From a virus (taxonomy: Duplodnaviria > Heunggongvirae > Uroviricota > Caudoviricetes), in the IMG/VR virus record IMGVR_UViG_2713896907_000001, positions 1 through 22,891 of that record: 22,891 bases of DNA; one strand, 5' to 3'. This document shows, one piece after another, positions 2,926 to 21,002 of this stretch; positions within the stretch are counted from its first letter, which is position 1, and each line of letters starts with the position of its first letter. The position numbers and the translations under genes are program-made. The notes below the pieces were generated by a model. It saw only the letters and a list, made by a program, of their open reading frames with translations. It was not told the origin of the DNA and ran no database searches.

Positions 2926-3246
2926 ATGAGCAAGTTCCCTAGTCATGAAATGGATAGGTTCAATATCAGGCTTCCTGCAGGAATGCGGGATGCTATAGCT
3001 GAACGAGCAAAACGTAACGGCAGATCAATGAACTCAGAGATTGTTCAGATACTGGAAGATGCCTTGAATGCAGAAAATACACTCGGGGAAATAGCAGATA
3101 AAATCAACAGCGTCTCGGTTCCGCTAAATGTTGATGCGCTAGTTCAACTTCAAGCCCAGGTTATCGCCATGCAAAAAGAAATACAGGAAAAGTTCAGAGA
3201 GCAGAACGAAAAGTTGAGAGAACTGCTAAACAAAAAACCCACCTGA
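2926..3246 (+). CDS. Mnt/Arc-family ribbon-helix-helix repressor (paralog B, in the canonical mnt position)
   Basis: MSKFPSHEMDRFNIRLPAGMRDAIAERAKRNGRSMNSEIVQILEDALNAENTLGEIADKINSV... has the RHH core (FNIRLP ... NGRSMNSEIVQ) followed by a coiled-coil-like C-terminus. Divergent from arc, as mnt is in P22 immI. Confidence 0.7.
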   Translation: MSKFPSHEMDRFNIRLPAGMRDAIAERAKRNGRSMNSEIVQILEDALNAENTLGEIADKINSVSVPLNVDALVQLQAQVIAMQKEIQEKFREQNEKLRELLNKKPT

Positions 3247-3271
3247 AGGTGGGTTAATTTTTGCCTTTTTT
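3231..3271. terminator. Bidirectional intrinsic terminator
   Basis: Stem AACCCACC (3236-3243), loop TGAA, GGTGGGTT (3248-3255). Flanked by an A-run upstream and TTTTTGCCTTTTTT downstream, so a U-tract follows the hairpin on either strand. Separates the immI genes from the upstream moron cluster and late operon. Confidence 0.65.
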
Positions 3272-3345
3272 GGACCATATTGACTACTTATAAAATGAGA
3301 TCAATATTTAATCGCCCAATAACGGGTATATGTTGAGGTATATCA

Positions 3346-3524
3346 TGGCGAAAAAACCAGGTGAAAACACAGGAAAAAACGGCGGAATATACCAAGAAGT
3401 TGGCCCACGCGGCGGTAAGAAAGACAATTTTGCAACCGTCAAGGACAACGAAAGGCTTCCACCAACAACAAAGCCAGGTCATGGCTGGGTATTGGATAAG
3501 CGAACTCCAGACAGCAAAAAGTAA
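3346..3524 (+). CDS. YjzC-like small protein
   Basis: From ATG at 3346 (GAGGT Shine-Dalgarno): MAKKPGENTGKNGGIYQEVGPRGGKKDNFATVKDNERLPPTTKPGHGWVLDKRTPDSKK. The KPGE..G.Y.EVG..G and P.T...H.W pattern resembles the YjzC-like family as I remember it. Has its own upstream region after the bidirectional terminator. Confidence 0.55.
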
Positions 3525-3537
3525 TAATCAAGCCGGG

Positions 3538-3903
3538 TCACTCCGGCTTTTTGATATGTCGCTCGCAGAACTCAACAAGCCTGCTCATTAAGTAGCAGTA
3601 AGTCTCGTTGGCTCTTCCTGGTTCAACATCAACACCTACCCTTGAGCAGATATCGAATGCCATGTGAGCGCACTCATGGGCAATAGTAGATAGTTTGCCA
3701 TTGAACACGCCTATCACATGCAAAACACCATTCTCGCTACTCATTGTATGAGACGCTCCGTTGGCGTCCGAGTCATGCACGTCAACGCCAAGTTTTTGAT
3801 GCAGGCGTTGCCATTCTGGAAAGTCTCTACAAAACACAATTGTACCGCTCTCAAAGAGCGGAACGAGCATCTTTGGTACGTTTCCAATGTTAACTTTTTT
3901 CAT
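3538..3903 (-). CDS. Small HExxH zincin-like protein (possible minimal ImmA/IrrE- or SprT-like metallopeptidase fold)
   Basis: From ATG at 3903: MKKVNIGNVPKMLVPLFESGTIVFCRDFPEWQRLHQKLGVDVHDSDANGASHTMSSENGVLHVIGVFNGKLSTIAHECAHMAFDICSRVGVDVEPGRANETYCYLMSRLVEFCERHIKKPE. HECAH motif, with a Glu 17 residues downstream and an ANETYCYLM segment reminiscent of the ImmA/IrrE E..AN.FA..LL motif. Confidence 0.5.
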   Translation of the reverse strand: MKKVNIGNVPKMLVPLFESGTIVFCRDFPEWQRLHQKLGVDVHDSDANGASHTMSSENGVLHVIGVFNGKLSTIAHECAHMAFDICSRVGVDVEPGRANETYCYLMSRLVEFCERHIKKPE

Positions 3904-3933
3904 GGTATCCTGCACAAAACTAAGGAGGTTGGT

Positions 3934-4323
3934 GTGAAGCGATTTCTTGCTGCTATGTTCTTATTCATATCTTTTGAGGCTACAGCAGAGTGCTGGGTCG
4001 TTGGAGATATGCGCGGAATAAGCTATTCAGAACGAAATAATTTCCATCCGGAAGAAGATGGTTTTAGTGGAACATTCATCATTAAGACAAGCGGTGAAGA
4101 TGCCAGCATCACATATTCTGGGACAGATGCGGGCGGCATGGCTTACAAAGCATTGTCTAAAAACTCCATCATAGGAATCGGCGCGAATGGCGAAACTCAA
4201 CGCGTTATCGACTCATGGGTAATACATCCTACTGGAACAGTTTTAATGTCAAAAACCATTTCCGGTTATGGAAATATGGATTCAACCAAAGCTTTTGTTG
4301 GAAAAGTAAAAAGAAAATGTTAG
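3934..4323 (+). CDS. Hypothetical exported protein with N-terminal signal peptide
   Basis: The track ORF 3718..4323 is antisense to the HExxH gene over its 5' half. The likely start is GTG at 3934, 5 nt after an AAGGAGG Shine-Dalgarno (3922-3928). Product MKRFLAAMFLFISFEATAECWVVGDMRG... has a basic n-region, hydrophobic core and ATA-E cleavage-like site; no lipobox. Confidence 0.5.
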   Translation: MKRFLAAMFLFISFEATAECWVVGDMRGISYSERNNFHPEEDGFSGTFIIKTSGEDASITYSGTDAGGMAYKALSKNSIIGIGANGETQRVIDSWVIHPTGTVLMSKTISGYGNMDSTKAFVGKVKRKC

Positions 4324-4347
4324 CGATTGAATCCAATTTCCCATACG

Positions 4348-6222
4348 TTACTGCTGTGTTGCCTCAGTAGCAAACAGCGGTCTGATGGCATTCGCAGCGT
4401 TATTTAGCGCTCTTTCATAGGCTGGTGTTCCTGCTTTGGTGTTTGCCAAACGAAGAAGCATATTCCTTGCGGCTTTGGACTCATACAAACGCATCATTGC
4501 ACCAAAGCCAGCCTCAAGCCCCATTGATACTCCAAGAGTCGCAGTTGCGCCAATCGTCCTTATCCTGTTGGCTTGTGATTGCCCCGTCTGAGTTACTACA
4601 TTTGCGGTGTCTGACCTTGCTGTTTGCTGTAGAACTTCATGAAGAGCATCAAGCTCTTTCATGTGCTTTCCAGAAAAAATAGTGTTGTAAATTTCACCGC
4701 CTGACTGAGATTTAAGCTTATTAACTTCAGTGATGAACTTGGCTGGAGAGTCACCGGCCTTTTCCGCTATTTTGCTGACGTAAGCTGCACGCATAGCATC
4801 TTTCCCTTTATCATCCAATGCGCTCCAGATTCGTTTCACGTCAGATGGCTTTCTGCTTAATACAACGGTATTTATAAGTTCAGGACTGGCTTCACTGCTT
4901 GCCTTGTTGAGCTTGTTAGCAATGTTTTTATTAAGCACCTTATTATAAACGTTTGCATAATCGGAGTTTGCTTTAAGGTATTTTGCTGCGTCTGATGCAC
5001 CGAGGTTTTTTGCAACTGCGCTACGAAGATCTTTTGACATTGCATTCTCTACCATATTGGTAGCTGCTTTTGCCTGGTTGGGGAAGACCATAGCATCTCC
5101 CTGAACATTGGATCTAAATGCTGTTCTGTGCTGACGCAAGAGATCAAACGTAACATCCAAATCAGTTGCAGGGTTTGCTAATTCTTCACGTAGGTTACGC
5201 AAGGATGTAAGCAGGCTTTGATTGGCAGACGTCCCAAGCCGTTCCTGTCTTGCGATCGCTGTATTCAGAGCATTCATGGTATTTGTGGTATCAACTGCGG
5301 CATTACCCATTTTATTGGTGACGTCATTGATAACAGCGCCAGCGGCATCCTTCCGTCCCCTTAACGTGGTGGTCAGAGATTTCACCACATCATCAGGGTT
5401 GTACTCACCAAAACGGTCAAAATAATTGCTTACCAGCTTACTACGCGTTGCATATTGCTCCGCTCGCTTTGAGCCTGTCCCGAGCAAAGCCCCCTCAGCA
5501 TCCTGAGTAAGTCCGCGAGTGAAAGCATTTTTCGGCGGGATAACATCAGATGTCATTGGTGTCACGCCCATCGATTCTGATGTGGCAATTTTCTTCGCCA
5601 CTTCTGGCGCAATATCACCTTTTATAGCCGTTATTCCACGCCCTATTCCCTTTGCTGCTGCGGAAAGAACACCCTGAGCGGCAAGGTTAACTCCGGCATT
5701 TTTAGCTGCATTTTGTGCGAAATCACCTTTCTGATTTGCGGCCTCTGCCAGTGATCCAATAGCCATGCTTCCTGCCGTTCCAACTCCTGGAACTAAATAC
5801 CCGCCAATTGTTTCTCCAGCTTGAGCGTAGGGGTCTGTCGGTCTGTCTACTGGACGATAGACATCATCCAATACTTTTGGCCCACCAAGCCCCTGACTGA
5901 TTGCATTAATCAGACTTGCGCCACCCTGCAATACGTCAAATGGTATGTTTACCAGACCACGACCAGCCTGTTCTGCAATTTGCCCTGCACTTTGACCACC
6001 AGTGAGCCAATCGCCAGCTTGTTGCATCAATGATGGTTCTTCTTTCTGCTGCTGAGGCGGAGGGTATGCTGCATAAAACTGATCTCTTGCTTCAGCCCAT
6101 TTGTCACCAGCCTTAGGGGCAACAACCTCATCAAAATATTGCGCTTGAGCCTGTGCTTTCTGTTCTTCAGTTAACGCCTGATACTGTGGAGAAGCGATAA
6201 CATCTTTCCATGCTTTAGCCAT
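4348..6222 (-). CDS. Ejection (injection) protein, P22 gp16-like
   Basis: 624-aa ORF in the gp16 position, last of the 14-7-20-16 ejection block; size close to P22 gp16; Ala/Gly-rich low-complexity internal region typical of these proteins. Confidence 0.75.
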
Positions 6223-20846: not shown

Positions 20847-20922
20847 TGGTGCTGGTTAACGGACTTGAACCGCTACCCATTCGCTTACAAGGCGACTGCT
20901 CTACCATTGGAGCTAAACCAGC
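20847..20922 (-). tRNA. tRNA-Thr (anticodon UGU)
   Basis: Minus strand GCTGGTTTAGCTCCAATGGTAGAGCAGTCGCCTTGTAAGCGAATGGGTAGCGGTTCAAGTCCGTTAACCAGCACCA folds as a 76-nt cloverleaf: perfect 7-bp acceptor and 4-bp D stem, anticodon loop CTTGTAA, T-loop TTCAAGT, encoded CCA. One G-A at the base of the anticodon stem. Confidence 0.75.
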
Positions 20923-20927
20923 ATATT

Positions 20928-21002
20928 TGGCGGGACAGCGTGGACTCGAACCACGATAAGAAGGTTAACAGCCTTCCGTAATGACCTTTATACGACTGAC
21001 CC
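20928..21002 (-). tRNA. tRNA-Asn-like (anticodon GUU), possibly slightly degenerate
   Basis: Minus strand GGGTCAGTCGTATAAAGGTCATTACGGAAGGCTGTTAACCTTCTTATCGTGGTTCGAGTCCACGCTGTCCCGCCA: perfect anticodon stem GAAGG/CCTTC, loop CTGTTAA, T-arm CGTGG-TTCGAGT-CCACG, encoded CCA. One U-U mismatch in the acceptor stem and a 3-bp D stem. Only 5 nt from tRNA-Thr. Confidence 0.55.

Follow-up and report, generated by a model that had tools for sequence, protein, structure and literature searches.

A Hex homologue on sieA expression signals in the ant moron of a P22-like phage

The interval between the Mnt-like repressor gene and the gp16-like DNA-ejection gene of the 22,891-nucleotide viral DNA analysed here (the window) is best explained as a part of the ant moron made of two independent modules: the convergent gene pair hkcC/orf59a, and a Hex-family gene that stands on the promoter and translation signals of sieA and would provide superinfection exclusion from the periplasm. 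We give this reading, taken as a whole, a probability of roughly 55%. The independent assortment of the two modules is a direct observation from genome comparisons, and periplasmic superinfection exclusion is the most likely role predicted for the Hex-like gene. While it was already known that the region is a moron hotspot, the literature searched yielded no mention of a Hex homologue in the sieA slot, of a swap at the start codon that draws on an envelope repertoire, or of a mobile hkcC/orf59a pair.

The interval and its convergent gene pair

The features on which the analysis rests are the following, in coordinates of the window:

2926-3246, + strand: Mnt-like Arc-family repressor gene, 106 aa, the left border (Pfam Arc, E 1.6e-20; PHROG Arc-like/Mnt families).
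3236-3255, both strands: plausible bidirectional intrinsic-terminator hairpin 3' of the Mnt-like gene, with U-runs on both strands.
3280-3308, + strand: sigma-70-like promoter TTGACT-17-AATATT for the 59-aa gene, from a promoter scan.
3345-3524, + strand: orf59a/hkcD homologue, 59 aa, YjzC-like (phrog_3202, E 7e-31).
3530-3549, + strand: intrinsic terminator between the convergent genes, with a U-tract on the + strand only, overlapping the last hkcC codons.
3538-3903, - strand: hkcC homologue with an HExxH motif, 121 aa, ATG start (phrog_1365, E 1.7e-39).
3849-3933, + strand: 85-bp block holding the putative P_sieA promoter and an AAGGAGG ribosome-binding site (3922-3928).
3934-4323, + strand: Hex-family gene in the sieA slot, 129 aa, GTG start.
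4348-6222, - strand: gp16-like DNA-ejection protein gene, the right border (phrog_770 'DNA transfer protein', E 1.8e-276).

A preliminary description of this DNA had reported three small genes of mixed orientation between the Mnt-like and gp16-like genes, each with a ribosome-binding site and bounded on the left by a bidirectional terminator. These observations hold: the three open reading frames are real and under purifying selection as judged by dN/dS, Shine-Dalgarno sequences can be read in front of each of them (GAGG for the 59-aa gene, AGGA for hkcC and, for the Hex-like gene, AAGGAGG ending 5 nt before the GTG), and the hairpin at 3236-3255, which a terminator scan detects on both strands, has folding energies of -15.7 and -17.4 kcal/mol (z -2.7 and -3.3) and is conserved in P22, the block of P22 homology beginning at this point. 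The order in which the genes had been given is that of the late operon and not that of the + strand. Terminator insulation, also proposed, would apply at 3236-3255 and at 3530-3549, the second of which corresponds to the annotated P22 feature t_mnt, but it does not extend to the right-hand side, where a scan and folding found no terminator between the Hex-like gene and gene 16. Rfam detected no RNA family in the interval; for the three proteins, Pfam, NCBIfam and PADLOC returned nothing significant except a sub-threshold YjzC match, and searches of PDB sequences with the family profiles gave no significant match. Beyond the right border, the product of the gp16-like gene contains long stretches identical to P22 gp16, and ORFs resembling gp20, gp7, gp14 and gp26 come after it.

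Megablast aligns positions 3230-3936 of the window with P22 at 97.2% identity, the exact block being 3233-3936, and the HExxH and 59-aa genes are thus the hkcC and orf59a/hkcD genes of P22/HK620. Villafane et al. (2008) named the gene 16-gene 9 interval the 'ant moron' and described it as variable and rapidly changing (PMC2629481); hkcC and orf59a have been listed since then as genes of unknown function within it (PMC2629481). The window presents the same gene 16-gene 9 interval with the same kind of variable content, the P22 version carrying sieA, hkcC and 59a. The premise that P22 has sieA between gene 16 and mnt was thus correct but incomplete, since hkcC and orf59a are found there too (PMC2629481), and the placement of the whole trio in the sieA position is right for the third gene, which replaces sieA, but not for the other two, which stand beside sieA in P22. 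That the region is moron-like is borne out by an interval content that differs among relatives and by expression signals belonging to individual genes, namely a promoter-like site and a terminator for orf59a, and the P_sieA block, without a downstream terminator, for the Hex-like gene. The shared start-codon swap point, the Hex homologue and the envelope bias of the slot genes are not part of the published account of the ant moron (PMC2629481).

The first module (Module A, 3280-3903) would be a convergent pair in which orf59a has its own promoter and terminator while hkcC runs along the late operon. The hkcC reading frame is annotated under this name in HK620 and is intact in P22, although the P22 reference records carry no annotation for it; the window copy differs from that of P22 by 5 synonymous changes and 1 nonsynonymous change, hence by 1 aa. 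Its relatives form a large family of proteins of 110-140 aa (517 representative clusters at E <= 1e-3). In an alignment of 66 diverse members, which share 23-44% identity with the window protein, the sole invariant columns are H76, E77, H80 and E100, so that an HExxH motif and a Glu of the third-ligand type, 20 residues past the second His, are conserved throughout the family. A Glu 20 residues beyond the second His of HExxH is the spacing found in thermolysin. In an AlphaFold2 model (pLDDT 89) a beta-hairpin leads into a helix that bears HExxH, with E100 opening the helix after it, and this predicted arrangement of a strand, the active-site helix and a further helix, like the HExxH and Glu themselves, is shared with gluzincin/SprT-like minimal zinc metallopeptidases. 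Structure and profile searches, however, gave no significant zincin match for hkcC. We call hkcC metallopeptidase-like, outside the named families.

The 59-aa protein, orf59a in P22 and HkcD in the HK620 annotation, is rich in Gly, Lys and Pro and 98% identical to P22 orf59a; dN in this gene is 0.12-0.19, with dS saturated. Its description as YjzC-like is accurate with respect to the extent of the alignment, which covers nearly the whole profile, but not with respect to the score: the window protein reaches 19.4 bits against Pfam YjzC (PF14168), whose gathering threshold is 25 bits, and six of seven 59-aa homologues likewise stay below it at 17.1-23.6 bits, while the seventh (L104) has no YjzC match at E <= 0.01. 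Weak tblastn matches of the 59-aa protein were also obtained to YjzC proteins of Firmicute phages. A TTGAC(T/C)-17-AATATT promoter-like site is located 34-38 nt 5' of the 59-aa start codon in six of eight independent contexts. A short GC hairpin within the leader of orf59a, which had seemed conserved, was dropped because it comprises only 4 base pairs and shows no more than one compensatory change.

The pairing of the two genes is strict: in 7 independent contexts, across which hkcC identity ranges from 43 to 100%, hkcC is followed by a convergent 59-aa gene, with 4-30 nt separating the stop codons. The pair occurs in P22-like ant morons, in four siphovirus tail operons, where it has the tail-tube/YdaY genes on one side and the tape-measure gene on the other, and in one contig beside a PF18894 phage metallopeptidase gene. 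Without exception, hkcC is oriented along the late or tail genes and its 59-aa neighbour runs against them. It is conceivable, if rather doubtful, that hkcC and orf59a encode a protease and its partner, related either as enzyme and inhibitor/antitoxin-like protein or as enzyme and substrate, the small protein being expressed, also in the prophage, from a promoter of its own and the peptidase late in the lytic cycle. We offer this relation as a best guess, held with low confidence. Strict pairing over such a range of hkcC identity, fixed orientation, the recurrent promoter-like site of the 59-aa gene and the invariant HExxH and Glu all point in this direction, but structural matches to zincins are below significance and more distant hkcC paralogues do without a 59-aa partner in late operons, as in phage L (Orf129), in epsilon34 (gene 70, directly 5' of dec) and in the mEp phages. 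P22 itself carries this unstudied pair.

Gene exchange at the sieA start codon

Over the 85 bp 5' of the Hex-like gene and its GTG, the window matches the region in front of P22 sieA at 100% identity; similarity to P22 ends right after this GTG, with none downstream. In the work of Leavitt et al. (2024), an insert in single copy with only 85 bp upstream of sieA was enough for full SieA exclusion (PMC10883804), and the same expression signals thus precede the Hex-like gene of the window. The P_sieA promoter, which is termed 'putative', was not flagged by a consensus promoter scan. We propose that in the second module (Module B, 3849-4323) the P_sieA promoter, ribosome-binding site and GTG of P22 would drive a Hex-family sequence instead of sieA, the 85-bp block serving as a conserved platform for expression.

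The same junction recurs among relatives. In 80 IMG/VR contigs that carry a near-identical, P22-like hkcC, the sequence GGTATCCTGC.CAAAACTAAGGAG is common to all 80 loci and divergence is seen only afterwards; GTTGGTGTG or a close variant comes next in 62 of them, followed by variable coding sequence. The slot up to gene 16 contains a single gene in nearly all of these loci (two have a second short ORF), and at least 12 unrelated families are represented, among them a 161-aa lipoprotein (18 loci), SieA (13 loci), Hex-like proteins (11 loci) and several other proteins of 62-149 aa. One further slot type was found in an E. coli prophage. By inspection, nearly all slot proteins have a signal peptide, a lipobox or an N-terminal transmembrane segment, and those tested against PHROGs all belong to families of unknown function. 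The swap point thereby marks about a dozen uncharacterised envelope proteins as candidates for exclusion assays.

By position, between gene 16 and mnt and under P_sieA, the Hex-like gene is a counterpart of sieA: it has the promoter block, ribosome-binding site, GTG and place beside gene 16 of P22 SieA (types A-C), both products are envelope-located, the Hex-like one by prediction, and both are probably expressed from the prophage. The proteins themselves are of different kinds. SieA is a multi-pass inner-membrane protein with three TM segments and the motif FxRYPxEAxxFNK, whereas the Hex-like protein lacks this motif, gives an E value of 1.1 in BLASTP against P22 SieA, has one N-terminal hydrophobic segment with an AXA site, is modelled as an all-beta barrel and is predicted to be secreted and soluble.

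The Hex-like protein and its predicted role

None of the three proteins had initially been recognised as a known exclusion protein, which must be revised for the exported one: it is a homologue of 434 Hex. Searches of phage genomes with tblastn gave full-length matches, at 28% identity, to the 434 'repressor protection protein' and to Sf6 gene 38, with more full-length homologues in HK446, HK633 and Sf101. Pairwise BLASTP against Hex gives E 7e-13, profile-profile comparison of the two Hex subfamilies gives an hhalign probability of 99.6% (E 1.9e-23, 128 columns), and phrog_2651 is matched by both the window protein and 434 Hex. The name of the 434 protein stands for 'heterologous exclusion' (PMC3564112): according to the account of Susskind and Botstein (1980) that is given in PMC3564112, Salmonella lysogenic for lambda imm434 excludes P22, an effect that is lost in hex- lysogens. 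Within the family, such exclusion by a prophage is documented for 434 Hex alone, and the literature searched did not state at what stage it takes effect.

434 Hex and Sf6 gp38 share with the window protein a signal peptide followed by an invariant CW and a C-terminus of the form TK(A/S)FVG..C; Hex has 134 aa against 129 for the window protein, and both genes are at prophage-expressed genomic positions. These positions are not the same. The 434, Sf6, HK446 and Sf101 homologues adjoin the cI repressor gene in the inspected or annotated records, and in imm434-type phages hex belongs to the P_RM operon, just 3' of cI, whereas the window gene is found between hkcC and gene 16, under P_sieA. As identity to Hex is only about 28%, the target specificity of the window protein may also differ.

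Codons 1-18 (3934-3987) encode a predicted Sec signal peptide, MKRFLAAMFLFISFEATA, cleaved before ECW. The N-termini of both subfamilies are variable but follow a single plan of basic residues, 10-14 hydrophobic residues, small-x-small, one residue and then the invariant Cys-Trp; a second Cys, near the C-terminus, is also invariant in both, and the pair corresponds to Cys20 and Cys129 in the window. The mature part is conserved, with a dN/dS of 0.12-0.15, in contrast to the signal region, which has diverged or been exchanged. AlphaFold2 (pLDDT 86) predicts an up-and-down 8-stranded beta-barrel from residue 19 onwards, residues 1-18 being of low confidence. From these sequence features and this model we infer that the Hex-like protein is a Sec-exported periplasmic barrel that a disulfide between its N- and C-termini would close. 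An outer-membrane barrel was also considered and rejected from the sequence: the mature protein, at about 111 aa, is short, ends in KRKC and has no aromatic beta-signal, and it is therefore probably not an outer-membrane protein.

Exclusion is well supported for the Hex-like gene because its product is homologous to that of a genetically defined exclusion gene and because it replaces sieA exactly. The earlier suggestion of superinfection exclusion is thus supported for the gene next to gene 16, a Hex homologue on sieA signals, which is a good candidate for that function. We envisage that the prophage makes the Hex-like protein and secretes it to the periplasm, where the disulfide would close the barrel, and that the protein may block superinfecting P22-like phages at or after the release of their ejection proteins, with gp20, gp7, gp26 or a partner in the host envelope as possible binding targets. 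It would in this way be functionally analogous to the inner-membrane SieA while acting in a different compartment. If true, a second, unrelated and soluble periplasmic protein on the sieA signals would offer an independent handle on the assembly of the P22 ejection-protein conduit.

Two other roles must be weighed. The Hex-like protein might serve as a lysogenic-conversion factor against threats other than phages, for example as a periplasmic inhibitor of lysozyme, of T6SS amidases or of colicins, and the occurrence elsewhere of Rap1a-like proteins (PF18602, the T6SS amidase immunity fold) in the same slot or beside the Hex-like gene is in keeping with such a role. We regard it as unlikely, since the genetics as relayed in PMC3564112 links Hex to P22 exclusion, the Hex-like gene and sieA are exchanged for one another behind one promoter and start codon, and the fold matches are generic, at 4-14% sequence identity.

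The other role is the one published for Hex. The sole biochemical study assigned the protein a cytoplasmic function, the protection of repressor from RecA: deletion of hex raised spontaneous induction about 30-fold in recA+ cells, and a Hex fragment stopped the RecA-stimulated cleavage of the 434 and P22 repressors in vitro (PMC3564112). By analogy, the window protein would be cytoplasmic and would guard the prophage repressor from such cleavage, stabilising lysogeny rather than excluding phages. The ORF used in that study had 158 aa, with 24 extra N-terminal residues, and the active fragment, sHex, spanned E43-N103 (PMC3564112). In the 134-aa numbering this is E19-N79: the first residue coincides with the predicted signal-peptidase site and the last lies midway along the predicted barrel, and these boundaries lead us to give less weight to the published cytoplasmic role for the window protein, although they do not disprove it. 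The Hex family as a whole moreover has a canonical Sec signal and the invariant pair of Cys residues, and the window gene is unlinked from the repressor gene and stands in the sieA slot beside the ejection genes. Repressor protection thus appears quite improbable for the window protein, and less probable than a conversion factor.

Superinfection exclusion from the periplasm being our preferred role for the window gene, it is tempting to extend it, with odds that we place somewhat below even, to a more general proposal: that the Hex family consists of Sec-exported, disulfide-closed periplasmic barrels that block DNA delivery by P22-like phages and are not repressor protectors, and that P_sieA, the ribosome-binding site and the GTG form a fixed dock for at least 12 unrelated envelope-protein genes, exchanged among P22-like prophages precisely at that GTG. 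Should this be so, the dock genes (SieA, Hex-like, lipoprotein, Rap1a-like and others) would constitute a natural library of exclusion and envelope-defence functions directed at the gp7/gp20/gp16 conduit, and the published cytoplasmic role of 434 Hex would merit re-examination.

Genomic company of the three genes

The surroundings of the Hex-like gene were compared in 80 IMG/VR loci. It adjoins gene 16 in 79 of them, and its neighbour on the other side changes: in the commonest layout (about 38-44 loci) it is directly 3' of the Mnt-like gene, mnt being prophage-expressed; in 13 loci, with a different signal peptide, it comes after the gene of an exported Rap1a-like protein; in about 9 loci, for example in phage Emek, it follows a SocA/Panacea-type pair. 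The arrangement of the window, after hkcC/orf59a, is seen in 13 loci, and the remaining 67 have the Hex-like gene without these two genes. Some or all of the interval is matched in 295 of 5426 complete E. coli genomes, those inspected carrying the hkcC/orf59a part, and all three genes occur together in only 21. The preliminary description had called for a check on whether the cluster travels as a unit, and these counts (13/80 Hex-like loci, 11/80 hkcC loci and 21/5426 E. coli genomes) show that it does not: the interval consists of two independently assorting modules.

A single defence or exclusion system formed by the three genes is thus very hard to sustain, compact and adjacent as they are and together as they also are in Salmonella phage ST-35 and 13 IMG/VR contigs, because the slot beside hkcC and orf59a is filled by SieA or by one of at least 10 other genes and the two also lie in siphovirus tail operons that have no Hex-like gene in the vicinity, because most Hex-like loci (after mnt, a Rap1a-like gene or a SocA-type toxin-antitoxin pair) dispense with them, and because SieA functions without hkcC/orf59a (PMC10883804). 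In some Salmonella prophages the Hex-like gene has as its flanking genes one for a lipoprotein and one for a further exported protein.

Export of the Hex family and the published 434 fragment

The active fragment published for the 434 Hex protein, sHex, spans E43-N103 of a 158-aa ORF (PMC3564112). It begins exactly where signal peptidase is predicted to cut the 134-aa Hex protein (ANS|ECW), and its C-terminal end falls halfway along the predicted beta-barrel.

L003 (phage 434) 2429-2905: hex region

Judging from the protein alignments A1 and A4, Sec export together with a conserved Cys pair looks like the pattern of the entire Hex family, a poor match for the cytoplasmic RecA/repressor role that has been proposed.

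Cassettes of the sieA slot

The IMG/VR loci with a near-identical copy of the HExxH gene hkcC carry a conserved block just ahead of the position that holds the Hex-like gene here.

L019-L098, equivalent to window 3904-4347: conserved block and cassette slot

The block, GGTATCCTGC.CAAAACTAAGGAG followed by GTTGGTGTG, lies upstream of at least 12 unrelated single-gene cassettes in these loci. Almost all of the slot-cassette proteins have a signal peptide, a lipobox or a transmembrane segment, and all those tested match PHROGs of unknown function. Other P22-like prophages have, in the sieA slot or beside the Hex-like gene, a gene for an exported protein that is Rap1a-like; PF18602 is the fold seen in immunity proteins against T6SS amidases.

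L007-L010 4650-4985; L101 209-562: Rap1a-like gene (PF18602)

hkcC and its 59-aa partner

L-type phages carry an hkcC paralog, 38-40% identical, directly upstream of the head decoration gene dec, and in Phi75, UAB_Phi20, ST160 and SE1 the hkcC query matches two places.

epsilon34 gene 70 (L099 2501-2890); phage L Orf129; ST64T orf-129: hkcC paralog

hkcC and its convergent 59-aa gene are also inserted as a pair inside the tail operons of siphovirus prophages (L014, L016, L017, L103), with tail-tube/YdaY genes on one side and the tape-measure gene on the other; on one contig (L104), the pair adjoins a PF18894 "putative phage metallopeptidase" gene. The leader of the window's 59-aa gene, orf59a, has a small GC-rich hairpin (3309-3330) just downstream of a promoter-like -10 element. 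This hairpin recurs, with differing sequences, upstream of other 59-aa genes, and its four base pairs and one compensatory change lend it weak support.

immI-like region and tRNA genes

The immI-like region (554-2829) looks expanded.

2641-2829, minus: Arc-like gene
1941-2651, minus: Ant-like gene
1128-1940, minus: second antirepressor-family gene (phrog_1726)
907-1128, minus: 73-aa ORF
554-892, plus: second Mnt-like ORF, C-terminus resembling P22 Mnt
20847-21002, minus, elsewhere in the window: tRNA genes for Thr(tgt) and Asn(gtt), side by side

The same tRNA pair is present in the P22-like prophage Scho1, according to the epsilon34 paper.
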